A DNA stretch of 43,042 nt from a bacterium (GCA_043719295.1 JAYSUD010000004.1:1-43042), one strand, 5' to 3'. Counted from the stretch's first letter, positions 3,665 through 43,042 are shown. Notes: generated by a model not told the origin, from the sequence alone. Numbers and translations: made by a program.

Positions 3665-3777
3665 GAGACGTCCAGCAGTTTTCGCTGAGCTTTACGTAGT
3701 GCACAGCAAAGCTGAGGCACTACTTCAAGCTCTATGGCAACGCGAAAACTGGGACATATGTTCGCTATTGTCGTTAC
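3665..3777 (+). repeat. Structured repeat family A, copy 1
   Basis: GAGACGTCCAGCAGTTTTCGC...GCACAGCAAAGCTGAGGC...GCGAAAACTGGGAC...GTTCGCTATTGTCG; matches 38438-38552(-) and 42991-end. Confidence 0.85.
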
Positions 3778-3866
3778 TTCTTACAGAAGCTGTTCAGGTT
3801 GTCACTATTTTATTCAAAATAGTAGTCAACCTCTTGCGAAAGCGTCCCACGCTTTCTCACTCGTTT
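3778..3866 (-). repeat. Structured repeat family B, copy 1
   Basis: Reverse complement AAACGAGTGAGAAAGCGT..ACGCTTTCGCAAGAGGTTG...CAACCTGAACAGCTTCTGTAAGAAG. Confidence 0.85.
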
Positions 3867-4537
3867 ACTTACATAAAAAAAGACCTAGGATAATCGTGAG
3901 CCAATACATTGTGTATTCGCTTGCGGTTGTCCTAGGCCTTATGGGTGAGCACTATTTTATTTGAGACTGTTGCCTCAGGAGGGTACCTTATGAAAGGTTA
4001 ACCCATAGTGTGCTCGATTGGTTTGTGCTGTGCGGCTCACTGTGATTTGATCTTGTTCTACTTTTTTTCACATAGGTTATACGAGTTGATTATGGGAACG
4101 TGAATCTTTTTTTCTTTTTAATTCTTGTCCCCATTGCAACCCATATAACGATGAGCTTGTATAGTGGGATGTTATGAACTTTAGAGTTGGAGGTAAGTAA
4201 CTCTTGAAGAGCTCACAGGCTCTTCTAATTTTATTTTGAATGATCACTTGAAGGGAAATATCCAAAGTTCTTTGCTTGATGCTTTTATGCTCAAGTCTAG
4301 AACTTTGGATACCTCTGCTTGCCCTCTCTGGGCCTACATGTATAGTATGTCCTTTATAAAAGAGTGTAAAGGACACACGTGTGCATAACTGTGTACAACT
4401 CAAAAACTTTGTCCTTTATAAAGGACAAAGTTTTTGAGAGAGTGATTATATGGCTCTGTTTAAACGTACTATTCGGACTCTGCTAGAGCAGATTGACAAA
4501 ATTGTGTTTCGTGTGATTATAAAAGTAGTCAAAGGGG

Positions 4538-4650
4538 TTTCGAAAATGAATGCAGTTAGAGTTATGAAAACAAAATAAATTGAGATGTACGTACCTGTAC
4601 ATTGAAAACAATTTTGCGAAATCCAACGAAGAAGTGCCCCGTTTTAAAGG
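4538..4650 (+). repeat. Structured repeat family C, copy 1 (degenerate)
   Basis: AATGAATGCAGTTAGAG...GAGATGTAC..GTACATTGA...CAACGAAGAAGTGCCCCGTTTT. Confidence 0.7.
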
Positions 4651-4654
4651 TACG

Positions 4655-5446
4655 TTAAATAGCAATATCAACAGAGACAGGACAGTGATCGCTACCGTAT
4701 ACCTCAGGGTGAATACGTGCACTTTTGATCATCGGCGTAAGAGTTTTTGAGACCATAACATAGTCGATTCTCCATCCAACATTTCGCTCCCGAGCTCCGC
4801 CCCAATGTGACCACCAGGTATAGTGACCTGCATCTTTGTAAAACAACCGGAGCGTATCGACAAAACCAGACTTGAGCATTGCATCAAACCCACTTCGCTC
4901 TTCTTTAGTAAAGCCCTTCTTCCCATCATTCTCCTTTGGCCTCGCTAAATCAAGTTCTGTATGTGCCACGTTGAAATCTCCGCAAAACACTACTGGTTTT
5001 TGCTTTTGAAGCGAGTCCATGAACTCTAAGTAGGCAGGATCCCAAGCCAAGCGCATAGGAATTCGCGAAAGATCGTCTTTTGCGTTTGGTGTATAGACTG
5101 TAGAGACAAAAAATTCCTCAAATTCCAGTGTTACCACACGCCCTTCCTGTGTGGTATCACCATATTTGTCAGAAAGCCCGTATTTACTAGCTATTTCTTC
5201 GGGAATTCCTAAAATAGACTGTATTGGTTCGATTTTTGTGAAGATTGCGGTACCAGAATATCCTTTTTTCTCTGCAGAATTCCAATATTCTTGGTATTCG
5301 GGTAAATCAATCTCTGCCTGTCCTTCTTGAGCCTTAGTTTCTTGCAAACAAATGATTTCAGGTTGGTGCTTTTGAATAAATGCCTGAAACTCACCTTTTT
5401 TCAAGACCGCCCGTATCCCATTAACGTTCCACGAGTATATTTTCAT
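4655..5446 (-). CDS. xth: Exodeoxyribonuclease III (AP endonuclease)
   Basis: SWNVNGIRA, LQETK, GYSGTA, CGDFNVAH, GWRIDY, SDHCPV. Confidence 0.95.
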   Translation of the reverse strand: MKIYSWNVNGIRAVLKKGEFQAFIQKHQPEIICLQETKAQEGQAEIDLPEYQEYWNSAEKKGYSGTAIFTKIEPIQSILGIPEEIASKYGLSDKYGDTTQEGRVVTLEFEEFFVSTVYTPNAKDDLSRIPMRLAWDPAYLEFMDSLQKQKPVVFCGDFNVAHTELDLARPKENDGKKGFTKEERSGFDAMLKSGFVDTLRLFYKDAGHYTWWSHWGGARERNVGWRIDYVMVSKTLTPMIKSARIHPEVYGSDHCPVSVDIAI

Positions 5447-5486
5447 TATAATAAGTATACCAAATTCAGTCTGCTATACTTTGGCT

Positions 5487-6095
5487 ATGCATAAAAATCT
5501 CGAGCACGTAATCTTTGACTTTGATGGGGTTATTGCTGATACAAGAGATACTAATTGGGCATTAAGCCAAGAGCATGACGCTACAGCAACGTACGAAGAT
5601 TTCTTGGCTCATCACGATGGAAATGTATTTGAAGAACCACGTATCAAATTTCTACCAGAAAAACGCCACATTTTTCATTCAGAATATCGCAAACGTCTTA
5701 CCCAAAGCCATCTAGAAAAAGCTATTTTACCGCTGCAGAATCTTGGTTTGCTGTATACACTCCACATTGTTTCAAGTACAAGCGAAGAATCAATTAGGAT
5801 TGCCCTTGAAAAATCGGGAATTTTAGAACTATTTTCTCGCATAATGGGTCAAGAAACACATTTTTCAAAAGTTGAGAAATTTAAGATACTCATGAGCGAA
5901 AACGGGGTTACAGCTTTAAATTCAATATTCATTACCGACACACTTGGTGACATCAAAGAGGCTCACAAAGTTGGTATCAGAACTATTGCGGAAACTTTTG
6001 GTTTTCATAATCGGAAGCGCTTAGAAGCAGGTGAACCGTACGCAATTGTTGATTCTTGGGATGAAATTGAACAAACTATAAAAAATCTTGAGTAA
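5487..6095 (+). CDS. HAD-superfamily hydrolase (phosphoglycolate phosphatase-like)
   Basis: IFDFDGVIADT motif I; C-terminal DTLGDIKEA. Confidence 0.88.
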   Translation: MHKNLEHVIFDFDGVIADTRDTNWALSQEHDATATYEDFLAHHDGNVFEEPRIKFLPEKRHIFHSEYRKRLTQSHLEKAILPLQNLGLLYTLHIVSSTSEESIRIALEKSGILELFSRIMGQETHFSKVEKFKILMSENGVTALNSIFITDTLGDIKEAHKVGIRTIAETFGFHNRKRLEAGEPYAIVDSWDEIEQTIKNLE

Positions 6096-6104
6096 AAAGA
6101 TATT

Positions 6105-6749
6105 ATGAACGATATCCAAAAAATATTTGCGTTTACTACCTATATAGGTACGTTCAAAAAAATGGAACGATTTGTAGGACAATACTTTTGGCGCGATTAT
6201 CCAAAAATTGACCGATATGATTCAAATGCAGATCATACATGGCGCATGGCAATGATTCTTACCGTTATTGAACCCAGGCTTTCATATCCAATTGATTTTA
6301 AGAAAGCTATGCAAATGCTTCTGATTCACGATATCCCTGAAATAATTGCAGGGGACGCAAGTCCATTGGGAAGTGACGGCACGGGGAATGACTCTCATGC
6401 ATATAACAAGGAAGCTGCAATACAAAAATTTGAAAGTGAGAAGTCTGCTGCTTTTAAAATATTTAACAAACTCCCCGATGTTCAAGCAGTTGATCTCTAC
6501 AATCTATGGTTAGAGTATGAAAAGCAAGATTCGTTTGAGTCTAAGGTAGTAAAAGCAATTGATAAGTTTGAAGGGAAGCTCCAAGCAAGTGAATATCGAA
6601 ACGGTAGTTGGTTTAAAGACCACTTTGCTTGGACGCTCGCCTATGGAAAAGAGGCGTTCACCGTAGATCCAGCACTCCAAGAACTTATGGATGTATTAGC
6701 ACAAGGGATGGAAGATAATTATAAAGAATTTGATTCTGGTTTGATATAA
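6105..6749 (+). CDS. HD-domain phosphohydrolase (YfbR/HD_3-like)
   Basis: DSNADHTWRMA, LIHDIPEIIAGD, LWLEYE, VKAIDKFE. Confidence 0.85.
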   Translation: MNDIQKIFAFTTYIGTFKKMERFVGQYFWRDYPKIDRYDSNADHTWRMAMILTVIEPRLSYPIDFKKAMQMLLIHDIPEIIAGDASPLGSDGTGNDSHAYNKEAAIQKFESEKSAAFKIFNKLPDVQAVDLYNLWLEYEKQDSFESKVVKAIDKFEGKLQASEYRNGSWFKDHFAWTLAYGKEAFTVDPALQELMDVLAQGMEDNYKEFDSGLI

Positions 6750-6756
6750 AAATCCA

Positions 6757-6783
6757 AAGCCGTCCCGATTTCGCGGGGCGGCT
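6757..6783 (-). terminator. Intrinsic terminator of cassette 1
   Basis: aagccgtcccgatttcgcggggcggct hairpin, identical to 7304-7330; T-rich on both sides. Confidence 0.75.
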
Positions 6784-6810
6784 TTTAAAAAGTGGATATT
6801 CTTTCCTCCC

Positions 6811-7032
6811 TCACAGTTGAGACCTTAGACTTTCTTGGCCCAACTGGGGAGTAAGCAACTTGAGCCTTCGAACCCAAGCAGCAAATTGTTCAACAGTGAA
6901 CTCGGGGGACGCAAACAGCGGTCCCTCCAATACAGAATCCTCCTTTAAAGCTTGAGGCGCAATCATCGGATACACCGGTTGATATAGCTCAGTTGCTATT
7001 GAGGCAAGTGCGTCGGCGAGCGTTCTTAACAT
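6811..7032 (-). CDS. Small hypothetical protein, 73 aa (ELYQP motif), cassette 1
   Basis: AGGAGG 7 nt before ATG; TTGACA promoter near 7120; terminator downstream. Confidence 0.7.
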   Translation of the reverse strand: MLRTLADALASIATELYQPVYPMIAPQALKEDSVLEGPLFASPEFTVEQFAAWVRRLKLLTPQLGQESLRSQL

Positions 7033-7303
7033 AACTCTTCCTCCTAATTTAGGTTAAAACTTCATAGAAGGTGCTCTGCCTTCTTAATGTCTATTACACT
7101 CTTATTTATAGTTTTGTCAACTAGAGAACGTTCGTAATTAACTATCTGAGGTATTATTTCCATACAACACCTTATTACTCCGAAGTACCTGCAAGTAAGA
7201 TACATTCATCATGTTCATGAACTTGTAAGAAGGACATGATTCTTTTCCAGATGTAATCGAAGTTATAGATCAATAAGGGAAGTGTTGATAGTATAAAAAA
7301 ACT

Positions 7304-7330
7304 AAGCCGTCCCGATTTCGCGGGGCGGCT
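7304..7330 (-). terminator. Intrinsic terminator of cassette 2
   Basis: 27-bp identical copy of 6757-6783, followed by a T-tract on the minus strand. Confidence 0.75.
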
Positions 7331-7364
7331 GGTGCGCATCGAGGACTGTACCTTTTGAGGAACT

Positions 7365-7535
7365 TCAGGTTTGGGGGATTTCTTCCAATGTACGATGTCT
7401 CATCAGGCTCGCACGATAGGAATCCTCCTGTTCGTCAGGAGAAATTTCATGATTGCCGAGAATATACGCAGGCACGAGTGGGGGTTGGTATATTTCTGCC
7501 ATCCAACCATCCAACAACTTCAAGATAAAGAGCAT
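7365..7535 (-). CDS. Small hypothetical protein, 56 aa (EIYQP motif), cassette 2; not in ORF track
   Basis: Manual translation MLFILKLLDGWMAEIYQPPLVPAYILGNHEISPDEQEDSYRASLMRHRTLEEIPQT; GGAGG 7 nt before ATG; leader similar to cassette 1. Confidence 0.65.
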   Translation of the reverse strand: MLFILKLLDGWMAEIYQPPLVPAYILGNHEISPDEQEDSYRASLMRHRTLEEIPQT

Positions 7536-7651
7536 TTTTCTTCCTCCCTTATTCTAGATTTTAGTTTTACAGAAGACAAACTGCCTCCTTATGTCTATTA
7601 GACTCCAATTTTGACTTTCGTCAATCAAACTAGGTTTGTAACTCTCTTAAA

Positions 7652-8575
7652 CTATGGAAATTTTACCTTTCCGTGGAACTTTTTATGGATGTCACGGAGG
7701 TGTTTGTCGGTGACGTGGGTGTAGATTTGAGTGGTACCGATGTTAGCGTGACCCAAGAGTGCTTGGACCGAACGAATGTCAGCACCGTTACTTAATAGGT
7801 CAGTTGCAAAGCTGTGACGGATGACATGGGGCGATACTTTACGAGTTATTCCAGCTTTAACTGCACACATTTTTAACATACGTTGAATTGCTCGGGGAGA
7901 GAGCCGTACATCTTTAGAATTCTTCGCATTTTTGCCATATTGAATAAACAACGCATCACTCATATCTTTTCTCGCTTTCAAGTAGGTATTAATTGAACTT
8001 TTAGCACTATCTGATAAAAACACCACGCGGATCTTATCGCCTTTGCCACGTACAGAAAATTCATCGCGGGTAAGGTCAACGTCATCAATAGAAAGGGCAC
8101 ATAGTTCAGAAATACGAAGTCCTGTTGAAAACAATAGCTCAAGGATTGCCGTGTCGCGCATACCTTGGAGTGTTCCTTTTTCTGGAGCTTTCATCAGTCT
8201 ATCGAGTTCGGCTGGTGAAATGAGGTCAAGTGAACGTTCGGGAACTTTTGCAAGTTCAATGACTTCGGGAGAAAGTGAAACAACACCACGCTTTCTGATG
8301 TATTTTAGGAATGCCCGCAAGGCAATGAGGTAGTAATTCTGGGTTTTCCGCTTCATTGGGTCAATACGACTACCAACTTTAGTACCCGGCTGGCGGTTAA
8401 GGTACAAACGAAAGGTCCGCATCATTTCTTCAGTTAGTGCTTTTGGGTCATCAGTTTTTGCATATTCAAAAAACTTTTCAAGGTATCGGTCGTAATTTTC
8501 AATAGTTTTCACACTCCGCCCCCGTTCTATCTCTAAATACTCAAGGAATTGCCGTTTCAGTTCACGAAGCTTCAT
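7652..8575 (-). CDS. Tyrosine recombinase, XerC/XerD family
   Basis: TGLRISEL, GKGDK, SPHVIRHSFATDLL..GAD...VQALLGH....TTQIYTHV; start at MKLRELK. Confidence 0.92.
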   Translation of the reverse strand: MKLRELKRQFLEYLEIERGRSVKTIENYDRYLEKFFEYAKTDDPKALTEEMMRTFRLYLNRQPGTKVGSRIDPMKRKTQNYYLIALRAFLKYIRKRGVVSLSPEVIELAKVPERSLDLISPAELDRLMKAPEKGTLQGMRDTAILELLFSTGLRISELCALSIDDVDLTRDEFSVRGKGDKIRVVFLSDSAKSSINTYLKARKDMSDALFIQYGKNAKNSKDVRLSPRAIQRMLKMCAVKAGITRKVSPHVIRHSFATDLLSNGADIRSVQALLGHANIGTTQIYTHVTDKHLRDIHKKFHGKVKFP

Positions 8576-8802
8576 ATATAACAAGTATAGCAGGGAAGAA
8601 GCGTCGCAAAAGTAGCAACGAAAGAACATCTCACAGCTTTTTTGCTAATTTTCATAATACTTTTGACAAATGTGCAAAAAGACGACATAACTTGCACTTA
8701 TGGTAAAGTTGTGCTATAGTTCTACAAACCTTCGCAGGTTATCCACGTACAGCATCTCTGCTATCTACAGCGACCTGTACACATTAAAACTTGCAACTCA
8801 AC

Positions 8803-9975: not shown

Positions 9976-10116
9976 AGGACTTACTCAAACGAGTGAGAAG
10001 TGATGAGAAGTCACTTCGCAAGAAGTTGACAGCTCTTTTGAAAAAAGAGCGACAACTTGCACAGTTCCTGTAAGGAACAAAAGAGGGAAGAAGTTGTGCC
10101 GTTTGTGTATGTCCTA
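9976..10116 (+). repeat. Structured repeat family B, copy 2 (full outer socket)
   Basis: TAGGAC..AAACGAGTGAGAAGTGA..TCACTTCGCAAGAAGTTG..CAACTTGCACAGTTCCTGTAAGGAAC..GAAGAAGTTGTGCCGTTT..GTCCTA. Confidence 0.85.
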
Positions 10117-16489: not shown

Positions 16490-16657
16490 ATATTCCTTAA
16501 TTTTGATTTACAAAAAAACCAGGGACTGACACTGGAGTTTTTTTATTCATAGTGAATTTTTAAATAGATGCATAGTAAGGTGAGTGCGCAGCAATTTAAT
16601 TTGAATACAAAAAGACCGTAAACGACGCTTACGATCTTTTTGTATTTTTCAGATATT

Positions 16658-16782
16658 GTGAAACACTTGAAAGTGAGTGCAGTTCGAGGCGGGCAAACAA
16701 AATAAAGTGAGGCGTGCGTCTGCACGTTGAACTTTATTTTGTGTAGCTCAACGAAGAAATGTGCTACTTTCAAGCGTTTCAC
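16658..16782 (+). repeat. Structured repeat family C, copy 2
   Basis: 17-bp outer stem gtgaaacacttgaaagt/actttcaagcgtttcac enclosing GAGTGCAGTTCGAGGCG...CAACGAAGAAATGTGC. Confidence 0.85.
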
Positions 16783-17862
16783 CTAGAATGGATTGGTGCC
16801 ACCTCGTACTTCGAAATGTAAATGTACCCCCGTTGATTTTCCAGTATTTCCCATCGCCCCAATTACATCACCCTGACCAACTTCGTCACCTACTACAACT
16901 CCGTTACTACTTAAGTGTGCGTAGAGTGTTTGTGTGCCATTGCTGTGTTTGATAACAATATAATTTCCATATCCACCATTCCATCCTGCACCTTTTGAAA
17001 CAATAACTGTACCCGCAGCTGCAGCCTTGATTGCAGTCCCATAAGAAGCTCCAAGGTCAACTCCGTTGTATCCATGAATACCTTGTGTCTTAAGTGCGCC
17101 TGGAGCAGGGTGTGAAAGTCCTGTACCTGTAGCTTTGGATCCTGAAGTTTTCGTAGGTGATGCTTTTGCAACAACCTTTTTTGCAGTATGGAGCTCTCCA
17201 CCAGGAATCATAATTTCTGTCCCGATAGTAATACCGCCAGCAGAGTCGAGATTGTTATACTCCAAAACCTCCTCCATGTTTGCTTCATACTTCTTCACGA
17301 TAGTTCCAAGAGTTTCTCCTTTTACTACCGTGTGTCGCACTCCAACAATAGGTAAAATAACCAGCGATTGACCTTCACGAATGTCGGTTGCTTTCGTCAT
17401 GTCATTTGCCCACAAAATAGTGTTGGTAGTAACTCCATACATTTCTGCAATCTGTGAGAGAGCATCACCTTCTCGTACTACATACACACTGATTTCACCG
17501 CTTCCCGCTTGTGCATTTTTAATTTCATCTTCTCCGATTGGACCAGTTGAAAACAAAACACCATTCTCAAAAGAGATGTCACCACCACCAATAGCTTTTT
17601 GTGCATCGGGATTCTTGGTCGCACTTAAAAGTGGGGTTGTGAGAGAAGATCGATCAATAGTGTCTTCCGTAATTTGTGCTACTACTTCATGGCTAAACAC
17701 CTGTGCAAGTGTATTAAAAAACCCAGCGTGAACTGAGAGGGGGATAACAAGTATTAATAACGTTGGTAAGAGTTCGTATACGAAAAAAGTAACCTTTCGT
17801 GAAAGGCCTATAGTTTGGTATGTATTCTCAGTATGGAAGTCGTTTGTAGGCGACTTGGGCAA
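16783..17862 (-). CDS. LysM-repeat M23 family peptidoglycan endopeptidase
   Basis: Two LysM domains (YVVREGDALSQIA, HTVVKGETLGTI); M23 motifs YAHL, GKSTGVHLHFEV. Start uncertain: in-frame TTG at 17862 chosen because the longer ORF overlaps repeat C3. Confidence 0.85.
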   Translation of the reverse strand: MPKSPTNDFHTENTYQTIGLSRKVTFFVYELLPTLLILVIPLSVHAGFFNTLAQVFSHEVVAQITEDTIDRSSLTTPLLSATKNPDAQKAIGGGDISFENGVLFSTGPIGEDEIKNAQAGSGEISVYVVREGDALSQIAEMYGVTTNTILWANDMTKATDIREGQSLVILPIVGVRHTVVKGETLGTIVKKYEANMEEVLEYNNLDSAGGITIGTEIMIPGGELHTAKKVVAKASPTKTSGSKATGTGLSHPAPGALKTQGIHGYNGVDLGASYGTAIKAAAAGTVIVSKGAGWNGGYGNYIVIKHSNGTQTLYAHLSSNGVVVGDEVGQGDVIGAMGNTGKSTGVHLHFEVRGGTNPF

Positions 17863-17948
17863 TACATCAGAATCTTGAGTACTAGGTAAAATATTTTTGT
17901 GATTATGGACTCGCCGCTTTTTTGCTTCCGTAGACAGAAATTTCTGAG

Positions 17949-18070
17949 AAAACTTCCATAAACGGCACACTTCTTCGTTGGTCTTCAGAGAAGAGCTTTC
18001 ATCATGCACGTGCATGCCTCAAACCATTTTCCTCAACCGCCTTGAATTGCACTCGTTTCTGAAAGTTTTT
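17949..18070 (-). repeat. Structured repeat family C, copy 3
   Basis: + strand AAACGGCACACTTCTTCGTTG...CATGC-ACGT-GCATG...CCTTGAATTGCACTCGTTT with outer stem. Confidence 0.82.
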
Positions 18071-18358
18071 AATTTTGATTCGTTCAAACAAAAAGAGCTC
18101 TAAGGCTCCTTGTGCTCTGCACCGCTATTGGTACTTCATCAATACTACTAGACCCAAAACTGAGGTCAATTGACGTATTCCACAAGTTTGTTCTGTTAAA
18201 AATAAGTCCCCGTATACCCCCAAAATTAGGCCTTTTTTGTTACATTGACGCAACGCTTTAATTGTTTTATAGAAAATGACCCCTTATTTACACATACAAC
18301 TGCGAGATTTTTTATATCCTTTCATATTCTGCACATATATATGTATGATGGTGACACT

Positions 18359-20332: not shown

Positions 20333-20398
20333 ATGTTGGGTCTCGTAAACCCCACGTTGCCTTAATAAATATTGTGTGGGGTTTACGAGACCCAACAT
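20333..20398. repeat. REP-like inverted doublet (family E)
   Basis: Perfect 23-bp inverted repeat atgttgggtctcgtaaaccccac / gtggggtttacgagacccaacat with a 20-bp spacer. Confidence 0.8.
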
Positions 20399-31349: not shown

Positions 31350-32120
31350 ATGAAAAAAACTCTTTTAATTGGTATCGCTACGTTCGCACCACTTTGTGTA
31401 GTTACGCTAGCAAGTGCCCAAGGGTACACCCCGATTGCAGGTGTTCCCGGGATTGATGTAAATGCATTAAGCACCGAGGGATACGTTACTGCTCTTTATA
31501 AACTCTCAATCACGGTTGCGTGTTTACTTGCACTTTACAAGATAATTTTTGGGGGAGTAAAATGGGCACTGTCTGATGTGGTTACGGATAAAGGAGAAGC
31601 AAAAAAGGACATCAAAGGAGCTCTACTTGGTCTCCTTATTGTACTTTCTGCTGTATTGATACTTAACACTATCAATCCAAATCTAACACAACTCAACATT
31701 TTCGGCGAAGGAGCCCCGAGTATAGATGCTATTGAAAGAGCACAAAATGAATTAAATGTTTCTTTTGGTGATGCAATCAACTCTGCTTTAGCAACTCCAG
31801 CAGAAGTTGCTCGTTTTGGAGAACGTTGTCTTGGTGGCGGAGGAGTAATCTCAAGAAGTGAAATTGTCATGAATAGAGCAGGAGGTACATCGACTCTATC
31901 TAAGTGCCTTACAAATCCAGCAAATATTAACGCTAATATAGGTGATACGTTTGATGCTTCAAAATATCCACCTGGAACAGGTGAATCTAGATTTAAGGAA
32001 ACATGTGAAGGTAATGGTGGAAGAGTCGGTGATAATCTGTTTGGTATTGATGATGAGTGTGTATCAAGGAATCCGAGTGATGGTCCAGGTGACGATGGTG
32101 TAATTCCTCCAATTATTTAA
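31350..32120 (+). CDS. VirB2-like T4SS pilin with Cys-containing C-terminal extension
   Basis: Signal peptide; TM-GG.KW....AKK.I..ALLGL-TM-LILNTINPNL. Confidence 0.75.
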   Translation: MKKTLLIGIATFAPLCVVTLASAQGYTPIAGVPGIDVNALSTEGYVTALYKLSITVACLLALYKIIFGGVKWALSDVVTDKGEAKKDIKGALLGLLIVLSAVLILNTINPNLTQLNIFGEGAPSIDAIERAQNELNVSFGDAINSALATPAEVARFGERCLGGGGVISRSEIVMNRAGGTSTLSKCLTNPANINANIGDTFDASKYPPGTGESRFKETCEGNGGRVGDNLFGIDDECVSRNPSDGPGDDGVIPPII

Positions 32121-32165
32121 AATAGAATAGAATAATCTTTTACATCAGTACAGTATACTTACACT

Positions 32166-33344
32166 ATGAAACGATCACTTATCATCACTATTGGCATACT
32201 CATTATTCTCCTTATTATTGGTTTGTGGGTATACCTGATGCTTTACGGGGCACCGAAAGAAACACGCGAAGTGTTTACAAACTTAGGTTTTAGTTCAAAC
32301 GGGAACGTGCCAACAAAAGTGATTGATGTTGAAAATATACAAAATCAAGGTACTAATCTTTCCCTTACTGGTTTAGCTTTGCAACAAATAACTACACGCG
32401 CTGTAGCAGGCTTTGGATTTGTTGAAGATACTAATACAAAGATACGATATGTAGAGAAGGGGACAGGACACGTCTACGAGATAGATACGAAAGAAAGCAT
32501 TGAAAATCAAATTTCACTCACTACCATTCCAAAAATTGCAGAAGCTGTTTTTTCTCCTTCAGGGGACATTGTTGTGATGACTTCATACGATGGATATGAT
32601 AAAAAAGTTATTCTTGGTACTGTAGATAGAAAGAAGCAGTCGCTGTCACTTATTACGCTGCCTCAAAATGCCGAAAACATTTCATTTCTAAATGACAAAG
32701 TTCTTTACTTTAGTGTTGAAAACGATGATGGAACCAAAGGATACTCATACGTCATTTCAAGTTTGGCCCAAACAGAAATTTTTTCACTTAAACTTAGTGA
32801 TCTTATAGTTACGTGGGGGAATGGACATAATGGTATAACAATTGAAACAAAGCCAACCGCTTCACAAGAAGGGTACACTTATACCATTTCAAAAAATATT
32901 CTTACACCAAAAAAAGCAAAGGGGTATGGTCTCTCAATACTGAGTAATCAAACACATACAATCGCTTCAACTATAGAAGGTTCTACATACGTATCGACTC
33001 TACACGGCACAGCATCAGAAATCAAACAACCGATGCTTATGCTTAAAGAAAAATGTGTGTTCGATAACAATAAAAAAGATGTGGTTTGGTGTGCGTCTCC
33101 TTTAACACCTCCTTCAGCCAACTATCTTGAAAACTGGTATAAGGGGATTTTGACTTCTGAAGACTACCTCTGGCAAGTTGATCTTACTTCACAAAGTGCA
33201 CAATTGATTGGAGACTTTCAAAAATTAAGTGGAAAAGTCATTGATGTTGAACACATGGAAAGTACACAAGACGGTAGAACACTTATTTTCACCAACAAAA
33301 TCGACCAGACATTGTGGTTATACAAAATCACAGAGGATAATTAA
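32166..33344 (+). CDS. Membrane-anchored beta-propeller-like protein
   Basis: N-terminal TM; YVEKGTGHVY, FSPSGD, LIFTNKIDQTLW. Confidence 0.7.
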   Translation: MKRSLIITIGILIILLIIGLWVYLMLYGAPKETREVFTNLGFSSNGNVPTKVIDVENIQNQGTNLSLTGLALQQITTRAVAGFGFVEDTNTKIRYVEKGTGHVYEIDTKESIENQISLTTIPKIAEAVFSPSGDIVVMTSYDGYDKKVILGTVDRKKQSLSLITLPQNAENISFLNDKVLYFSVENDDGTKGYSYVISSLAQTEIFSLKLSDLIVTWGNGHNGITIETKPTASQEGYTYTISKNILTPKKAKGYGLSILSNQTHTIASTIEGSTYVSTLHGTASEIKQPMLMLKEKCVFDNNKKDVVWCASPLTPPSANYLENWYKGILTSEDYLWQVDLTSQSAQLIGDFQKLSGKVIDVEHMESTQDGRTLIFTNKIDQTLWLYKITEDN

Positions 33345-33457: not shown

Positions 33458-33597
33458 TTGGACCTTCACAAACGAGTGAGAAGTGATACAAAATCACTTC
33501 GCAAGAGGTTGCCTGCTCTTTTGGAAAAAGAGTGACAACCTGAACAGTTTCTGTAAGAAACAGATAACGAAGAAATGTGACGTTTTTGTAGGTTCAA
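33458..33597 (+). repeat. Structured repeat family B, copy 3 (full outer socket)
   Basis: AAACGAGTGAGAAGTGA..TCACTTCGCAAGAGGTTG..CAACCTGAACAGTTTCTGTAAGAAAC..AACGAAGAAATGTGACGTTT. Confidence 0.87.
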
Positions 33598-35041: not shown

Positions 35042-35086
35042 ATTTTTGAGTCTCTAATGTTTGTGGACAGAACTGTACACTATTTA

Positions 35087-35210
35087 CAGAACTTACGCAA
35101 ACGGCACACTTCTTTGTTGTACTGCATAAAATGCTCCTCACCGTACTATGCGTACGGCTCGTCGTATTTTGTTTGTACGCCTCGAATTGCACTCGTCTAC
35201 CTAAGTTCTG
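35087..35210 (-). repeat. Structured repeat family C, copy 4
   Basis: + strand cagaactta..AAACGGCACACTTCTTTGTTG..CTCACCGTAC-tatgc-GTACG..CCTCGAATTGCACTCGT..taagttctg. Confidence 0.85.
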
Positions 35211-35336
35211 GTACTAAATATTTATTAGATTTATAGCTACACTCTTAATAGGCATAGTAAGGTAAATCTAAAAAGTAAGATAATGCCCGAGATACGCGAA
35301 GTACAAGAAATTTTTTATGAGCCCTACTTGTTGTAG

Positions 35337-35412
35337 GGTGGGAAGCGAATACTTGGAGCTTCGCAAGACCTTGAGCATTTTTATGCAAAAGGTGTACAGC
35401 TTCTGTAAGAAG
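35337..35412 (+). repeat. Structured repeat family B, copy 4 (core only)
   Basis: GGTGGGAAGC..GCTTCGCAAGACCTT..AAGGTGTACAGCTTCTGTAAGAAG. Confidence 0.8.
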
Positions 35413-35602
35413 AGTGAAAGTTTCGTAGTACGACAAAGTAGATGGGGTATTATATTGCTTTTTGTGTTGTGCACAGGTTATGCACAGATGAATGGACTTG
35501 CCAAAAAAATCATCCCTCCTGGCACAGGAAAATCAAAAAGTGTTTACAGTTTTTCATACGCACGTATAATGTTTTCTACATCTAATTTCAGTAAAAATTC
35601 CT

Positions 35603-37325: not shown

Positions 37326-37329
37326 ATAT

Positions 37330-38424: not shown

Positions 38425-38437
38425 TGAGCTACAGAGC

Positions 38438-38552
38438 GTAGCGACAATAGCGAACTTTCGTCCCGGTTTCCGATGTTGACCTAGAGTGTAACTTTTTGCC
38501 TCAGCTCTGCTGTGCGAAAAGTTATACTCATCGGAAACTGCTGGACGTCTCC
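38438..38552 (-). repeat. Structured repeat family A, copy 2
   Basis: Reverse complement GGAGACGTCCAGCAGTTTCCGATG..GCACAGCAGAGCTGAGGC..CATCGGAAACCGGGACGAAAGTTCGCTATTGTCGCTAC. Confidence 0.85.
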
Positions 38553-38634
38553 AGAGTACCTGTGTGCGTTAATAGCTGATAGAAACACCCTAATCTCTAT
38601 TCTACAAAATTAACTTTTAATTCAAACATATTAT

Positions 38635-38925
38635 ATGCGCAAGGGTCGTGGTGAGATAGTAAAACTCAGTTCTCTTTTTGAGAAGTATACAAAAACACTA
38701 AAAGCGCCTCAAGGTGTGGTGACTTCATGCTTTATAGAGGTCGTTTTTGAGCTCCTGAAGCTTGAAATAACAAAAGAGAAGCTTACCTACTCAGTTACTA
38801 CTAAAGTCCTATCTGTGAGGGTTTCAGGTCCTTTAAAAAGTGAAATTATGCTCCGAAAAAAAGAAATCTTAAATCATATGAAAGGTCGTATAGGAGAACA
38901 AGGTGCACCAAGAGACATTATGTAA
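38635..38925 (+). CDS. DUF721/DciA-like protein
   Basis: KVLSVRVSGPLKSEIMLRKKEILNHM pattern; position after dnaN. Confidence 0.6.
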   Translation: MRKGRGEIVKLSSLFEKYTKTLKAPQGVVTSCFIEVVFELLKLEITKEKLTYSVTTKVLSVRVSGPLKSEIMLRKKEILNHMKGRIGEQGAPRDIM

Positions 38926-38926
38926 T

Positions 38927-39052
38927 GCAAGACCATCGCAGACGGCACATTTCTTCGTTGCATTGCATAAAATAACACTCACCGTACTCAATGTACGTCT
39001 CGCATTATTTCATTTGTGTGTCTCGAACTGCACTCGTCTGCGATGGTCTTGC
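38927..39052 (-). repeat. Structured repeat family C, copy 5
   Basis: Perfect 18-bp outer stem gcaagaccatcgcagacg/cgtctgcgatggtcttgc enclosing GCACATTTCTTCGTTG..CTCACCGTAC-tcaat-GTACG..CTCGAACTGCACT. Confidence 0.88.
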
Positions 39053-39117
39053 TTGTAAAAGTAAAAAATCACACAATATAGATTTCTTGTGTGGTTTTTT
39101 ATAGATCAATTTCTCAA

Positions 39118-41343
39118 TTAATTTTCTTCGTCCTCCTCTTGATTTGGTCTGTCGCCTTCTTCAGTATCCTCTTCAACAACGGCGTTTGTATACGTACCTT
39201 CTGCCCATTTCTGTACAGCGTATTCCCAATTCTGATATTGCGAATCCGCAGTTGGATTTGATGGGTATGGCCCTAGTGGATTTCGTTTATCTACAAAGTG
39301 CAGTATCGTGTGGATGTTTGACGCAACACCTGCCAAGTCAGGGGTGGTACTTCCAGATTGCATACTTTGAATTAATGTCGCGGTATCAAATATCTCTCCT
39401 CTAAGTACGGGTTTAATGTTGGGGTTAATTGCCTGTGGTTCAGAAAAGTACTTTGTCTCACGTTTTGCAAGTGCAATATCCATAAACTCACGCCATTGCG
39501 GGGTTGCAATAAGTCCCGAGAGTCCGTTCATTGGGGAGTTATCGTTGTTGCCTACCCAAATACCTACTGCAAGGTTTGGCGCATATCCCATAATCCATGC
39601 ATCACGAGAGTTGTTGGTACTTCCTGACTTTGCTGCTACATCGCGATCTTTAAAATTAATAAGTGAGTTACCTCCCCAGAGTGGTGTACGAGCTGCATTG
39701 TCTGAAAGAATGTCTGAAATTTGCAAGGCAACATTTTTATCAAGTACTCGACTCTCACTCACTGGAGTTTCCTCGAGGGTATTTCCACTCATGTCTTCAA
39801 TACGAAGAATTGCTCTTTGTTGCGCCTTTATGCCCTCATTTGCGAACACACCATAGGCACCGGTATGCTCAAGGAGCTTCACTTCTCCACCTCCAAGCAC
39901 CAACGTAAGTCCAAGTCTATCAGGATCATTAAGTGTTGAGATTCCCATGTCCCCCGCAAGTTTAATTGCGTCTTTAATTCCTGTTAGATACAGAACTTTC
40001 ACTGCAGGAATATTAAGTGACTGTGCAAGTGCGTTACGCAAACTAATAGGTCCAACAAATTTATTGTTGTAATTATTTGGTGAGTAACAAGGGTCTGTGC
40101 CACTTAGATCCCAAGGTTCACATACAGAACTAAATTGAGTTTTTATATCAAATACTTTTGTTTCAGGAGTGTATCCTTTTGCAAAAGCAGAAGCATAGAC
40201 AATAGGTTTGATAGAAGACCCTGGTTGTCGTGGAGAAACAGTAATGTTGAAGTTTCCATCAATGGTGGTGTCAAAATAATCACGTGAACCTACCATAACC
40301 AATACGTCTCCTGATTGAGGGTCAACAGCAACCATTCCACTATTATCAGCTTTGAATCGTGTTTGCACATCCTCTGCGTGTTCTTTCAAAATGCGTTCTG
40401 CTTCCTGTTGTAGTTCCCAATCAAGTGTTGTAATAACTTTCATTCCTTTTTCAGAAAGTGCCTCTTCACCAAATTTTTCTACAAGTTGTTCACGAATATA
40501 CATCACAAAGTGGGGTGCACGTATTCCTGTTATTGCCTGTGGTTGAAATGTAACTACAGTTGCTAGAGCACTATCATGTTCTTCTTGGGTTATAAATTCA
40601 TTGATAAGCATACGTTTAAGCACAAGTTTCTGTCGAGCATCAAGCGCATCTTTATGTGTTCCATACGGTGAAAGGTACGTGGGTGCTTGTGGCAATGCTG
40701 CAAGGTAGGCAGCTTCAGGAAGAGTAATATCTGAAGCTGATTTACCAAAAAACGACTGGCTTGCTTCTTCAACTCCATAAATAGTCCCTCCATACGGTGA
40801 CTCATTGAGATAGTGTCCCAAGATCTCATCTTTTGAAAGTACACGCTCAATTTTTATTGCAAGAATTGCCTCCTTAACTTTTCGCGTGAGTTTTTTTTCT
40901 TTTTCAAGAATAGAGTTTTTGATTACTTGTTGAGTAATCGTAGAACCTCCTTGCCCTCCAAGCAAATCCCCACTAAAGAAATTTGCAAGCGCTGCACGTA
41001 AAATTGCGAGAGGGTCAATACCAATATGTTTATAAAATTCATCATCTTCTATAGCAACACTTGCATTTTTAATGTGATAGGAAATATTTTCAAACGGTAC
41101 AATTGTACGTCTGACATCTTGGTGTAAGTCGTAGAGAAGCACCTCACCTGTTTTGTCATAAATCTTTGTTGATTGTTCAATTCTTCTCTGGTCAAAAGAG
41201 GACAAATCTGGGATCTCAAGTGTTGAAACCCAAATAAAAAGACCCCCAATGAGTATCATCAGAATCACAAAAGTAGCTATTCCGGTATCAATAAGAACGT
41301 CTTTATAGTGCTTCTTAATCCATATTTTTATGTTCTTTTTCAT
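39118..41343 (-). CDS. Class A penicillin-binding protein (PBP1A family)
   Basis: EDDEFY.H.GID, GGSTITQQVIKN, RKVKEA, RQPGSSIKP (SxxK), SLN, KSG; start may be 41361. Confidence 0.93.
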   Translation of the reverse strand: MKKNIKIWIKKHYKDVLIDTGIATFVILMILIGGLFIWVSTLEIPDLSSFDQRRIEQSTKIYDKTGEVLLYDLHQDVRRTIVPFENISYHIKNASVAIEDDEFYKHIGIDPLAILRAALANFFSGDLLGGQGGSTITQQVIKNSILEKEKKLTRKVKEAILAIKIERVLSKDEILGHYLNESPYGGTIYGVEEASQSFFGKSASDITLPEAAYLAALPQAPTYLSPYGTHKDALDARQKLVLKRMLINEFITQEEHDSALATVVTFQPQAITGIRAPHFVMYIREQLVEKFGEEALSEKGMKVITTLDWELQQEAERILKEHAEDVQTRFKADNSGMVAVDPQSGDVLVMVGSRDYFDTTIDGNFNITVSPRQPGSSIKPIVYASAFAKGYTPETKVFDIKTQFSSVCEPWDLSGTDPCYSPNNYNNKFVGPISLRNALAQSLNIPAVKVLYLTGIKDAIKLAGDMGISTLNDPDRLGLTLVLGGGEVKLLEHTGAYGVFANEGIKAQQRAILRIEDMSGNTLEETPVSESRVLDKNVALQISDILSDNAARTPLWGGNSLINFKDRDVAAKSGSTNNSRDAWIMGYAPNLAVGIWVGNNDNSPMNGLSGLIATPQWREFMDIALAKRETKYFSEPQAINPNIKPVLRGEIFDTATLIQSMQSGSTTPDLAGVASNIHTILHFVDKRNPLGPYPSNPTADSQYQNWEYAVQKWAEGTYTNAVVEEDTEEGDRPNQEEDEEN

Positions 41344-41416
41344 GATGTGTACTAAGGCCATATTACCATGTTCTGTCTATCTATTGATACGTCAAGCAGT
41401 GTGCTAAAGTTATTCT

Positions 41417-42658
41417 ATGAAATTGTCAGAAGAGTTAACAGAACGTGGGTTTATTAATCAAATTTCCTCAGAATCACTGAGTGAAATACTCGATGGTGAA
41501 AAACGAATTATTTATCATGGCATAGACCCAAGCGCAGATTCAGCACATGCGGGTAACTTTGTAATCTGGATGTTGCTCCGACATCTTGCACAAGCGGGTC
41601 ACACAGTTTTTTTCCTTGTTGGAGGAGGTACGGGCATGATCGGAGATCCAAAACCTGATGCAGAACGAACTCTTTCGTTGCCTGAAGTTGTTGCTTCAAA
41701 TGTAGCAAAACTTAAGATTCAAGCGGCAAGTTTACTAGAAGGGCACAAGCTCCAGTTTGTTAATAATTATGATTGGCTTTCAAAAATTAACTTGATTACA
41801 TTCCTTCGAGATATTGGTAAACACTTCACAATTAATGAACTTATTAAAAAAGATGCAATTGCAACTCGTCTAAATAGCGAAGTTGGACTCTCGTACACAG
41901 AATTTGCCTATCCTTTACTGCAAGCGTTTGACTATCTGACCCTTCATAAGGAATATGGATGTGACCTCCAGGTTGGAGGTTCAGATCAGTGGGGTAATAT
42001 TATTGCAGGAGTAGACTTAATTCGCCGTGTTGAGCAAAAAAAAGTACACGCACTTACCGTGCCCCTTATTATAGATAAAGCTACCGGGAAAAAATTTGGA
42101 AAAAGTGAAGGTAATGCGGTCTGGTTAGATGCTACAAAAACATCCCCGTATGCGTTCTATCAATTTTGGCTTAATGCATCAGACGAAAGTGTTATCGACT
42201 ATCTTAAACTATTTACACTTTTGTCACTTGAAGAAATTAGTCAAATTGAACTTGAATCTAAAACTAATCCTTCTCTACGTACTGCACAAAAGAAGCTTGC
42301 GTATGAAGTAACTTCCTTTGTACATACTCGTGATGCAGCAACTGCGGTCACTCGAGCCTCTCAATCGTTATTTGGGGAAATAGAATTCAAAAGTTTAACT
42401 GAAAATGAGGTGGCAATTCTGAAAGAAAATGCTCCACATGTAGATTGTCAGGAAAACGAGGAAATTATTGAAGTACTTATTAAGGCAGGTCTTGCAACAA
42501 GTAAACGTGAAGCACGAACCTTTATTGAGGAGGGTGCAGTCTCAATAAATGGACTAAAAGTTACTGGTGCACTTGAAATCCTTACCTCAGACAAGTATGG
42601 AAAAATAGTTTTGTTAAAGCGAGGTAAGAAGCAACTGTCCCTTATTTCGTTTACGTAG
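41417..42658 (+). CDS. tyrS: Tyrosine--tRNA ligase
   Basis: GIDPSADSAHAGN (HIGH-like), QVGGSDQWGNI, KFGKSEGN, C-terminal S4 domain. Confidence 0.96.
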   Translation: MKLSEELTERGFINQISSESLSEILDGEKRIIYHGIDPSADSAHAGNFVIWMLLRHLAQAGHTVFFLVGGGTGMIGDPKPDAERTLSLPEVVASNVAKLKIQAASLLEGHKLQFVNNYDWLSKINLITFLRDIGKHFTINELIKKDAIATRLNSEVGLSYTEFAYPLLQAFDYLTLHKEYGCDLQVGGSDQWGNIIAGVDLIRRVEQKKVHALTVPLIIDKATGKKFGKSEGNAVWLDATKTSPYAFYQFWLNASDESVIDYLKLFTLLSLEEISQIELESKTNPSLRTAQKKLAYEVTSFVHTRDAATAVTRASQSLFGEIEFKSLTENEVAILKENAPHVDCQENEEIIEVLIKAGLATSKREARTFIEEGAVSINGLKVTGALEILTSDKYGKIVLLKRGKKQLSLISFT

Positions 42659-42670
42659 GAAATTAGTAAT

Positions 42671-42704
42671 CAAAAAGCCACCATATTGTCATGGTGGCTT
42701 TTTG
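42671..42704 (+). terminator. Terminator after tyrS
   Basis: caaaaagccaccat-attgtc-atggtggctttttg. Confidence 0.7.
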
Positions 42705-42844
42705 CTTACTTTAAGGGGGGCAAAATGTAGTGGGGTGCGGACTTAACTAAGCGTTGGAGAGTTCCTATTTTCTGCTAAATATACTGTAGAACAGGGCTAA
42801 CGCCGAGGTTCTACAGTATATATTGAGTCAGCAGCAGAAAATTA

Positions 42845-42945
42845 GGTGAGAAGCGAACACTTGGAGCTTCGCAAGACTTTGGCTAGTATTTTGTGAGTGA
42901 AGCGAAACAAAAGGGTGACAAAGTGGACAGCTTCTGTAAGAAGAG
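42845..42945 (+). repeat. Structured repeat family B, copy 5 (core only)
   Basis: GGTGAGAAGC..GCTTCGCAAGACTTTG..CAAAGTGGACAGCTTCTGTAAGAAG. Confidence 0.82.
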
Positions 42946-42990
42946 AAGTTCGCCATTGTCGCTATTACTAACAGAGTTAACTGGAACTTT

Positions 42991-43042
42991 GGAGACGTCC
43001 AGCAGTTTTCGCTGAAAAAAATACAGAGCACAGCAAAGCTGA
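42991..43042 (+). repeat. Structured repeat family A, copy 3 (truncated by window end)
   Basis: GGAGACGTCCAGCAGTTTTCGCTGA..GCACAGCAAAGCTGA. Confidence 0.8.

Follow-up and report, generated by a model that had tools for sequence, protein, structure and literature searches.

Three nested families of small structured repeats in the genome of an ultra-small bacterium

Three new families of small repeats, A, B and C, are dispersed through the genome of a member of the Patescibacteria (candidate phyla radiation, CPR; 971,491 bases, 90% complete). Their single-strand folds are supported by compensatory stem changes, they are inserted into one another and into copies of genes, and each has its own patchy distribution among relatives. 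The window, the whole stretch of DNA that was analysed, is 43,042 nt long (GCA_043719295.1 JAYSUD010000004.1:1-43042), and coordinates are counted from its start. Here a first-pass annotation had seen one mix-and-match family, with interchangeable cores held in a shared socket. Its structured, fold-selected elements stand, but the single system is not supported in that form: what look like “interchangeable cores” are independent families inserted within each other. The best reading is that A, B and C resemble BOX, REP or MITE repeats, as non-autonomous, structure-dependent mobile elements. Probably they are three independent, small, non-coding families whose single-strand fold is recognised by a mobilising machinery. 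They would then travel as single-stranded, folded DNA or RNA, acted on by a moving enzyme for which several candidates are weighed below.

The repeats in the window and in the genome

Three rounds of nhmmer over all 971,491 bases (cut-off E<=1e-3) gave 49 copies of A, 72 of B and 93 of C on 11-12 contigs, so the families are genome-wide and not limited to the window. Together they make up 2.07% of the genome. In the window, where their share is 3.3%, there are 4 A, 5 B and 6 C matches:

3659..3777, + strand: A1, a full A, long imperfect hairpin with apical CACAGC..GCTGAGG and 3' part GTTCGCTATTGTCG (nhmmer E=3.3e-28, model 1-121; fold z=-4.1)
3777..3862, - strand: B1, three hairpins, abutting the 3' end of A1 in the outer arm of A (CM R1, 94.3 bits)
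4539..4645, + strand: C1, a degenerate C (nhmmer E=8.7e-16; fold z=-0.9)
9976..10112, + strand: B2 (core 9991-10076) within C-type ends (the “socket”), upstream of pnp (R1, 100 bits)
16651..16787, + strand: C2, a full long hairpin (R2, 128.2 bits; z=-8.9)
17942..18078, - strand: C3, full (nhmmer E=4.5e-19; z=-3.5)
33458..33592, + strand: B3 (core 33474-33559) within C-type ends (R1, 100.5 bits)
35081..35218, - strand: C4, full (R2, 133 bits; z=-5.9)
~35270..35455, + strand: a sixth C, of a divergent subfamily, new here (C model 8-71 at 35282-35345; the outer limits are a reading of the flanks, not program output)
35336-35412, + strand: B4, interrupting the sixth C just past its apical hairpin (nhmmer)
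38438..38553, - strand: A2, full (nhmmer E=4.5e-28; z=-3.8)
38922..39059, - strand: C5, full (R2, 126.9 bits; z=-9.3)
42751..42964, + strand: a fourth A, new here, split by B5 (A model 1-120 over 214 nt)
42845-42943, + strand: B5, between the A body and the GTTCGCCATTGTCG part of A
42987..43042, + strand: an A copy ending at the contig end (A model 2-58, E=5.9e-10)

At all thirteen positions first annotated the sequences are as described, but the true number is fifteen, the extra copies being the A split by B5 and the C split by B4. The copies had all been called intergenic; by crude ORF calls this holds for 42/49 A, 58/72 B and 82/93 C genome-wide. The GTTCGCYATTGTCG “tail”, listed as a separate module, is A's own 3' part.

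Chance is ruled out by the shuffle counts. With at most one mismatch, GAAGAARTGTGCC occurs five times where 0.07 are expected, and ACAGYTYCTGTAAGRA five times where 0.01 are expected; for each, five occurrences were reached in 0/100 shuffles. A repeat search of the window pairs copies in both direct and inverted orientation. A CRISPR or other tandem array was rejected: the copies are dispersed on both strands and are not regularly spaced with unique spacers. Short tandem clusters are formed only by A, and these lack spacers. Being small (85-160 nt), non-coding, multi-copy and dispersed, all three families have the size and copy number of MITEs, and none has coding capacity. Rfam 15 matched no A, B or C copy, either in the window (gathering threshold and E<=5) or at four repeat-rich loci (E<=1), in keeping with the initial impression that these are unlike any described riboswitch or ribozyme.

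Folds, distribution and gene context

C (~138 nt) and A (~160 nt with the outer arms counted) both form long, imperfect palindromes whose ends are inverted repeats; in the main C subfamily these ends read TAGGACTT...AAGTCCTA. The architecture of B (85-105 nt) is unusual. It is asymmetric, lacks terminal inverted repeats, and consists of three consecutive hairpins with conserved unpaired joints, in the order (G)GUGA, P1, GCAAGA, P2, UGNACAG, P3 with loop UGUAAG; P1 and P3 share neither length, loop nor sequence. RNA-fold z-scores were obtained for 12 window copies: those of A (-4.1, -3.8) and C (-8.9, -3.5, -5.9, -9.3, and -0.9 for the degenerate C1) are listed above, and B gave -3.8, -2.7, -3.0, -1.9 and -0.7.

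The stems originally quoted (GGTTG/CAACC, CTTTG/CAAAG, CGTAC/GTACG and others) are found in the copies, and the compensatory changes claimed for them extend well beyond the window. Across the 97 B copies taken from other genomes, pairing holds in 93.5% of the cells of the stems, against 67.4% after shuffling; 0/500 shuffles reach the observed value, and sliding by 1-3 columns gives 41-49%. In C and A, internal bulges are conserved while whole stem sequences are swapped, and old C copies have outer stems that are perfectly complementary yet quite different in sequence, which simple decay of inverted-repeat ends would not yield. A strand bias among stem mismatches, also pointed out at first pass, recurs: G.U exceeds A.C by 50 to 9 in the 97 B copies elsewhere and by 240 to 55 in the full-length C copies of this genome. 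Four C positions with G.U as the majority state hold 122 G.U and 4 A.C, and the remainder stand at 118 vs 51. Full-length copies in this genome give 31 vs 19 for B and 33 vs 35 for A.

Within the genus, 95 of 100 other genomes carry B, with from 1 to at least 39 copies each, and 92 of 100 carry C; among relatives, copy numbers of B and C range from 0 to at least 39. An order sample of 120 other genomes, covering about 119 genera, has B in 65 and C in 31, and the fold and joints of B are kept in more than half of the order's sampled families. In a phylum sample, B was found in 1/150 genomes. A occurs in 4/5 genus genomes and in 0/5 B- or C-rich genomes from other families. One genome (G037) carries 16 B and no C, another (G290) at least 27 C and no B. 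B and C are thus independent families with different distributions, which does not support one socket system. A literature search found no paper describing family B.

The strand of C that bears G.U is mostly antisense to neighbouring genes in this genome (44 vs 9), and A is also oriented non-randomly (23 vs 4). Taken with the strong stem covariation, the conserved unpaired joints of B, the excess of G.U over A.C on one strand and the presence of B in 65/120 genomes across the order, this orientation would suit a role as RNA for the host, in which the repeats serve as cis-acting or small RNAs (stabilisers, attenuators, antisense or protein-binding RNAs) under host selection and their spread is secondary. 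Such a role is unlikely. The orientation of B to neighbouring genes is unbiased, both here (22 vs 22) and elsewhere (26 vs 23; among the 97 copies, ++ 26, -- 23, +- 16, -+ 9). Neither B nor C has a conserved gene neighbour, the commonest protein family next to B being found at 7/80 loci. The B upstream of pnp (polynucleotide phosphorylase) is present at 1/30 orthologous loci, in this genome alone; in 29/29 relatives, no B lies closer than 1.5 kb to the start of pnp. Sites resembling promoters or terminators occur in the window about as often as expected by chance, and their positions show no relation to A, B or C. The range of copy numbers among relatives and the copies inserted within gene copies also argue against it.

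Nesting and insertion sites

Matches to A and C are split by B (nhmmer). Genome-wide, six B copies lie within A, three within C and 17 beside A or C, and a C-type 3' motif follows 14/72 copies. B is found at four or more distinct points within C. One copy sits exactly between gcgtg and caagt of C, with zero bases duplicated or lost; elsewhere, B junctions show small replacements (GCA, ACGG) and long duplications. The junction of A body, B and A part at 42751-42964 recurs, giving nine A+B composites in the genome, and the abutment seen at A1/B1 is found again in this genome and, by coordinates, in three others (G062, G018, G001). Insertion of B at various positions in A and C, with later spread of some of the resulting chimeras, accounts for the composites. 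B would insert beside G-rich sites, some of which lie inside A and C, and certain chimeras (a B core held in C ends, A body-B-A tail, B against the outer arm of A) would then multiply, producing what looks like sockets with interchangeable cores.

The bases just 5' of B are constrained: G stands at -2 in 74% of cases, while at -1 the shares of G and A are 61% and 25%. B adjoins G-rich sites with G then G/A directly before GTGAGA. Eight of the 97 copies directly follow GGTAGA/GGTGGA, at one fixed D-arm position, in truncated tRNA gene copies (those that could be named are His, Tyr, Asn, Val and Thr), with the intact tRNA gene 40-150 nt downstream. Duplicated gene 5' ends also contain B: in two species those of a GH1-like (glycoside hydrolase family 1) gene, and in this genome those of an MsrA-like (methionine sulfoxide reductase A) gene, where two tandem units carry two different B subfamilies at an identical TTTCTGGG site. 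Other sites of B are a fragment of 5S rRNA and the 3' end of a tRNA. The fixed D-arm position and the duplicated gene 5' ends indicate insertion at G-rich sites.

The stretches duplicated beside B are long and variable (about 25 to about 72 nt). In 4/8 of the tRNA cases the intact gene has an intron of 250-370 nt after the anticodon loop, and at the two loci compared in detail (L121, L129) the B-bearing truncated copy is intron-less while its intact neighbour bears an intron. These features, the 50 to 9 excess of G.U on the B strand and a group-II-like reverse transcriptase encoded in the genome are what an RNA intermediate would predict, with B, and possibly A and C, copied by reverse transcription like a SINE or a retrozyme, perhaps with template switching. 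This route also seems improbable. The reverse transcriptase, which is not surrounded by intron RNA, occurs in 17/100 genus genomes, including two without B (G042, G056), against 95/100 for B. Moreover, B lies within C without duplication, its 3' end shows no tail or priming signature, and the intron-less tRNA copies may just be older than the intron invasion.

No fixed-length target duplication of the MITE type was found, and B within C has none at all. Around C, 49 full-length copies gave no clear duplication, and a possible TA may belong to the ends. No empty site was recovered: the nearest relatives are too distant (62-75% identity over the N-terminal 200 residues of polynucleotide phosphorylase), and metagenome contigs gave no joint across an element. 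B shows no replication-strand bias, its strands counting 33 and 24 in one GC-skew class and 8 and 7 in the other.

Candidate enzymes and related elements

The genome encodes four RAYT-like Y1_Tnp genes, whose best NCBIfam match is REP_Tyr_transpos although all four proteins score below the NCBIfam cut-off. If these HUH (Y1) proteins were the movers, the repeats would be single-stranded DNA elements of the REPIN/PATE type, a sub-case of the mobile-element reading that names the enzyme. It would fit the missing inverted ends of B and its insertion into C without duplication, as well as the higher B copy number of genus genomes with Y1_Tnp (median 14 vs 5; present in 28/30 genomes with at least 16 B and in 9/28 with at most 5), in a comparison of kin that are not independent. 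We consider it quite unlikely. Three of the genes are flanked by REPs of their own (REP1-3; 17-21 nt, 3-10 copies each) and the fourth by nothing, but never by A, B or C. Twelve RAYT1 loci (that of G000 and 11 orthologues) show one weak B-like match (24.5 bits) and no A, and at the G000 locus a C lies some 1.2 kb away from the gene. Across the order, Y1_Tnp is found in 42/65 B-positive and 32/55 B-negative genomes (p=0.57), which is no association, and B-rich genomes exist without any Y1_Tnp match (G048, 31 copies; G298, 15; G305, 14). The dissimilarity of P1 and P3 and the absence of replication-strand bias also count against it. The genome also contains a classical small REP system, in which REP1 has 10 copies, 3 of these within the window. 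Two rve-type (integrase-core-domain) insertion sequences were rejected as movers, their ends being unrelated to A, B or C. DDE_3 and TnpB signatures are absent from the genome, and no autonomous partner with matching ends was found in this 90% complete assembly.

Pneumococcal BOX, RUP and SPRITE are described as co-resident families of less than 200 nt with tightly folded predicted structures, BOX being modular, in linear A-B(n)-C blocks, and the repeats being inserted within one another (PMC3049150, which also mentions BIMEs). A, B and C are similar in forming several small, folded, co-resident and mutually inserted families. They differ in having no sequence relation, another host phylum, order-wide persistence and, in B, no inverted ends; their composites are formed where B has landed at various sites inside A and C, not from linear blocks. 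REP/REPIN sequences with RAYT are short, palindromic, high-copy, vertically persistent and non-autonomous (PMC3116915, PMC3337134). A, B and C are like them in these respects, in a genome encoding RAYT-like Y1 proteins, but they are 85-160 nt long with complex folds, are absent from the flanks of the RAYT-like genes and, order-wide, show no co-variation with Y1_Tnp.

The PATEs of IS200/IS605 lack inverted ends and target duplications, insert 3' of a short fixed target, are biased towards the lagging-strand template, and have similar left and right hairpins. B resembles them in its ends without inverted repeats, its hairpins near both ends, the short sequence it prefers immediately 5' of its left end and the lack of duplication inside C. 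Unlike them, its left and right hairpins are dissimilar, it has no replication-strand bias, TnpB is absent, and it occurs in genomes without a Y1_Tnp match. MITEs with terminal inverted repeats include the Correia elements of Neisseria, and the BIMEs of E. coli are mosaic. C and A are likewise small palindromes with conserved ends in mosaic arrangements, at about 2% of the genome for the three families, but they show no demonstrable target duplication and no insertion sequence with shared ends, and internal bulges are conserved while stems swap whole sequences.

That A, B and C are mobile elements is thus supported by their abundance, copy number and distribution, the absence of a fixed context, nesting, gene insertions, fold selection on one strand, and the lack of coding capacity and of Rfam matches. 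Against this we count the missing empty site, clear C target duplication and autonomous partner, RAYT-like genes never flanked by the repeats, the complementary outer stems of old C copies, the antisense bias of C, and the order-wide persistence of B joints, which is more than is usual for a purely selfish element. A bolder proposal, doubtful as a whole, is that B represents a new class of small structured mobile element in one order of ultra-small Patescibacteria: a three-hairpin strand of ~90 nt inserted at G-rich sites, including the tRNA D-arm, outside the rules of DDE, HUH or known retro-elements. Its mechanism may be RNA-based or template-switching, leaving long variable target duplications, and A and C would be both elements and preferred landing pads.

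The genomes of ultra-small host-dependent bacteria are regarded as streamlined, yet about 2% of this one, or some one-seventh of the DNA outside crudely called ORFs, consists of three nested families of structured repeats. One of them, B, has a fold kept order-wide that is unannotated in Rfam. The family models are ready markers for the lineage, and the repeats explain contig breaks in metagenome assemblies and flag a source of gene-start duplications and tRNA pseudo-copies. If a mobilising enzyme or an RNA-based mechanism were found, it would be a new way of moving DNA in bacteria.

Anatomy and folding of the repeats

The C repeat is a single hairpin, long and imperfect, that measures about 138 nt. 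In its main subfamily the outer stem reads TAGGACTT...AAGTCCTA, and leads to a conserved and asymmetric internal region in which (A/T)(C/T)GAGTGCAATTCGAGG faces CAACGAAGAAGTGTGCCGT, then to an A/T-rich stem, and finally to a covarying apical stem of 5-6 bp (CGTAC/GTACG, CCTAC/GTAGG, CGTGC/GCACG). Family A likewise forms a long hairpin: its apical CACAGCTAACGCTGAGG is conserved, it contains a GTTCGCYATTGTCGCTAC segment, and its outer arms are weakly inverted. Copies of A often stand in short tandem clusters. Unlike A and C, B consists of three consecutive hairpins (P1, P2 and P3) without inverted ends. Its stems differ wholesale by subfamily, P2 being GGTTG/CAACC, CCTTG/CAAGG, CTTTG/CAAAG or CTCATTG/CAATGAG and P3 being CTTC/GAAG, TTTC/GAAA, CTCC/GGAG and others, while its joints (GTGA, GCAAGA, TGNACAG) and its TGTAAG loop hardly vary. 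A closing helix joining the flanks of B into a four-way junction is rejected as a general feature (flank duplex -7.8 versus -7.4 kcal/mol for mismatched pairs, p=0.54), and no B split by an ORF in P2 is found in the source genome, where the loose search patterns returned many spurious 5' halves.

The compensatory stem changes reported in the first-pass annotation are borne out for B. A covariance model (R1) trained on 25 copies from the source genome retrieves 97 B copies in 80 loci of other genomes. In the resulting alignment, which is fitted to the model and drawn from loci pre-selected by a joint-containing pattern, standard pairs occupy 93.5% of pair cells, a level that 0/500 shuffles reach (67.4% after shuffling) and that drops to 41-49% if pairing partners are displaced by 1-3 columns. 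Both sides change in 24 of the 25 pairs. The same 97 copies contain 50 G.U against 9 A.C mismatches, and C in the source genome contains 240 against 55, or 118 against 51 once four positions with G.U as the founder state are removed. This excess argues that one particular strand is kept foldable, at least in B and C. In A the two mismatch types are not skewed (33 versus 35). The proposed comparison with Rfam 15 yields no match on any repeat, whether in the window at the gathering threshold and E<=5 or in four repeat-rich loci at E<=1; A, B and C are families new to Rfam.

Copies in the genome and among relatives

The source genome has 971,491 bases in 12 contigs, with 40% G+C (relatives range from 0.5 to 1.7 Mb), and the window is its complete contig C6. 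The species occurs in sediment samples, matched there at 98% of words. The gene content of the window is ordinary housekeeping: CCA-adding enzyme, exonuclease III, a Xer-like recombinase, polynucleotide phosphorylase (pnp), a UvrD-family helicase, the membrane insertase YidC and a class A penicillin-binding protein (PBP1). All 13 copies listed in the first-pass annotation are found there, with a motif frequency far above chance, but two more had been overlooked:

42751-42964: A copy split by the copy B5
about 35270-35455: C copy split by the copy B4

The repeats extend well beyond the window, as a scan of the whole genome by iterated nhmmer gives 49 copies of A, 72 of B and 93 of C, which together cover 20,128 bases (2.07% of the genome; 3.3% of the window). 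By crude ORF calls, 42/49, 58/72 and 82/93 of these, respectively, are intergenic.

Other structures were noted as well. Strong extra hairpins belonging to neither A, B nor C occur at 3870-3945 and 4340-4445 of the window, in an unusually long 1.15-kb gap between convergent genes that also holds the copies A1, B1 and C1 and one copy of the short palindrome REP1. The gene for the Xer-like recombinase (7652-8629, minus strand) is closely followed downstream by two direct-repeat pairs (6745-6783 / 7292-7330 and 7082-7137 / 7586-7641), spaced by about 500-550 nt, one of them a G+C-rich hairpin with copies 92% identical; the arrangement suggests a local tandem duplication. Copies of A and B are densely clustered on contig C1 (66000-72500, locus L099) around a 381-aa ORF with a 51% identical paralogue at 32026-33093 of that contig. 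This ORF, between two B copies, was considered as a transposase and rejected, since Pfam gives no hit and the NCBIfam match, to the CPR Pam-pilin C-terminal family, is weak.

Among other genomes, B and C are widespread in the genus and extend to the order, represented here by a sample of 120 other genomes from about 119 genera.

Occurrence of the three families in other genomes
B: genus, 95/100 other genomes, with 1 to at least 39 copies; order sample, 65/120; phylum-wide sample, 1/150 (only 26 candidates per genome scored)
C: genus, 92/100 other genomes; order sample, 31/120
A: genus, 4/5 tested; B- or C-rich genomes of other families, 0/5

B and C co-occur above chance in the order sample (odds ratio 3.2, p=0.012), and they are also found separately, one genome (G290) having at least 27 C and zero B and another (G037) 16 B and zero C. 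A BLAST census of C, which gave 11/24 in the genus and none in 16 other families, is an underestimate according to the covariance model. An exact-pattern scan for B, with one genome per species, returned at least 115 stretches against a roughly estimated chance expectation of <1, nearly all titled Patescibacteria, and five of the genomes found in this way carry 33-85 B copies each; the corresponding scan of IMG/VR returned 0 stretches. A spread of B across the whole candidate phyla radiation, as read from record titles, was discarded because many differently titled records belong to one genus or order. Genomes of the same genus (loci L114-L193) are titled mostly as Kaiserbacteria, some otherwise, and one as an actinobacterial order. 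Public organism names are an unsafe guide to the spread of the repeats.

Nesting and insertion into genes

The composites that gave the repeats their modular look are real. Single A matches of 208-214 nt each enclose a B (e.g. 42751-42964), and C matches are halved around a B at 11839-12040 of contig C9 and 1470-1668 of contig C11. Compared with uninterrupted copies, C has received B at no fewer than four different points: after GAGTG, after GGCGTG, within the apical stem and after the apical hairpin. One B sits exactly between gcgtg and caagt of C, with zero nucleotides duplicated or lost. Nine A+B composites have B in place of 4 nt between the A body and its GTTCGC part, and because this junction is common to all of them they look like the product of one event, after which the composite spread. 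In the window, B2 and B3 form a small subfamily in which only the ends of C are left around a B core, and a C-type 3' motif lies downstream of 14/72 B copies in the source genome. B1 abuts the 3' end of A1, and by coordinates such B-A abutment recurs in other genomes of the genus. The first-pass annotation took these arrangements for a mix-and-match system, with interchangeable cores in a shared outer socket. They are explained here by B inserting into A and C and by the later propagation of the chimeras, which leaves "sockets" behind; the mix-and-match appearance thus comes from nested insertion among independent families. A, B and C are probably structure-dependent, non-autonomous mobile elements, in three independent families.

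B also enters genes. Its 5' flank is conserved over two bases only (G in 74% at -2; G in 61% or A in 25% at -1), and in 8/97 copies this flank is the GGTAGA or GGTGGA of a tRNA D-arm. There B replaces nucleotides 24-26 of a truncated tRNA copy, the tRNA sequence continues for 12-22 nt, and an intact tRNA gene follows 40-150 nt downstream. The tRNAs concerned are Asn, Val and Thr by ARAGORN, and His and Tyr as read from sequence. Four of the intact genes (L121, L127, L129 and L186), read as His and Tyr and not called by ARAGORN, have an intron of 250-370 nt after the anticodon loop, which is read as group I-like from its conserved core; at L121 and L129, the two loci compared in detail, the intron is missing from the B-bearing tRNA copy, which reads straight across the exon junction. 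In two species a GH1-like gene shows this X-B-X'-gene layout at its start. On contig C10 of the source genome (36463-36711) an MsrA-like gene has had its start duplicated twice in tandem; each duplicate ends at TTTCTGGG, and B elements of different subfamilies follow this same site. B is also present in a 5S rRNA fragment and, on the other strand, in a tRNA 3' end. The B copies in tRNA copies and gene starts are insertions into essential genes, surviving beside a restored gene start. The duplication may be made by the insertion mechanism, or it may have been filtered by selection; B inside C has no such duplication. Shortened B-like units without P1 occur at L127:2709-2790, L186:1926-2043 and L116:5427-5517, inside reverse-strand copies of the tRNA T-arm/acceptor downstream of the same tRNA genes.

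Candidate agents of movement and known systems

It is improbable that the elements are primarily functional for the host as RNA. The orientation of B is unbiased with respect to the genes around it (22 versus 22 in the source genome, 26 versus 23 elsewhere), no protein family recurs beside it, the maximum being EF-Tu at 7/80 loci, and its position upstream of pnp is peculiar to the source genome (1/30 orthologous loci). In favour of such a role, C and A lie mostly antisense to co-directional neighbours (44 versus 9 and 23 versus 4); C orientation also tracks GC skew. Promoter-like and terminator-like sites occur at chance-level counts and do not track the elements. In-frame C within pnp of two relatives was rejected, as no frame is open across the matches, which, given the contig orientation of these loci, lie upstream of the gene. 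Counting against the mobile-element reading, no contig bridges an empty site in four metagenome runs, whose uncovered parts are uninformative; in these runs the element-containing depth bins are among the highest, and many loose ends fall at element borders.

Movement through RNA is equally improbable. The source genome has one copy of a stand-alone, group-II-like reverse transcriptase of 366 aa (contig C7, 76922-78022), around which no intron RNA is detected, but homologues are present in only 17/100 genomes of the genus, including two without B.

Slightly less probable again, as a sub-case of the mobile-element reading, is movement by the RAYT-like enzymes. The four Y1 (HUH) genes of the source genome encode proteins of 196-223 aa, all above the Pfam Y1_Tnp cut-off and below that of NCBIfam REP_Tyr_transpos. 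Three of these genes have short palindromes of their own on their flanks (REP1, with 10 genomic copies; REP2, 3; REP3, 3), and none of the four is flanked by A, B or C. REP1, a 21-nt palindrome flanking a RAYT-like gene on contig C1 (29590-30420), represents a classical small REP system; the window contains it once at 3588 (3586-3612) and as an inverted, REPIN-like doublet at 20335 and 20376 (20333-20398). Orthologues of RAYT1 are patchy, sometimes multi-copy or broken, and the 12 RAYT1 loci (that of the source genome and 11 orthologues) contain one weak B-like match (24.5 bits) and no A; at the source locus a C copy lies about 1.2 kb from the gene. Y1_Tnp is present in 63/100 genus, 74/120 order and 70/150 phylum genomes. 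Within the genus, B copies are more numerous where it is present (median 14 versus 5, p=4e-6, among kin that are not independent), which speaks for these enzymes. However, across the order B is unrelated to Y1_Tnp (42/65 B-positive versus 32/55 B-negative genomes, p=0.57), and no match to Y1_Tnp is found in several genomes rich in B.

The rve-type insertion sequences (two copies) have ends unrelated to the repeats, and no DDE_3 or TnpB signature is found in the source genome. Among these candidates for the co-occurring enzyme envisaged in the first-pass annotation, none is clearly linked to the repeats.

Among the closest known systems to these mobile elements we would place IS200/IS605-derived palindromic elements, Correia-type MITEs and E. 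coli BIMEs. Published accounts add the REP/REPIN-RAYT systems (PMC3116915, PMC3337134) and the pneumococcal BOX, RUP and SPRITE repeats, which are modular, folded and mutually inserted (PMC3049150). Our literature search found no paper describing repeats of this kind in these bacteria. It is unlikely that B stands for a new mechanism of movement. B is unusual in its architecture, in its order-wide persistence and in its position in duplicated gene starts.
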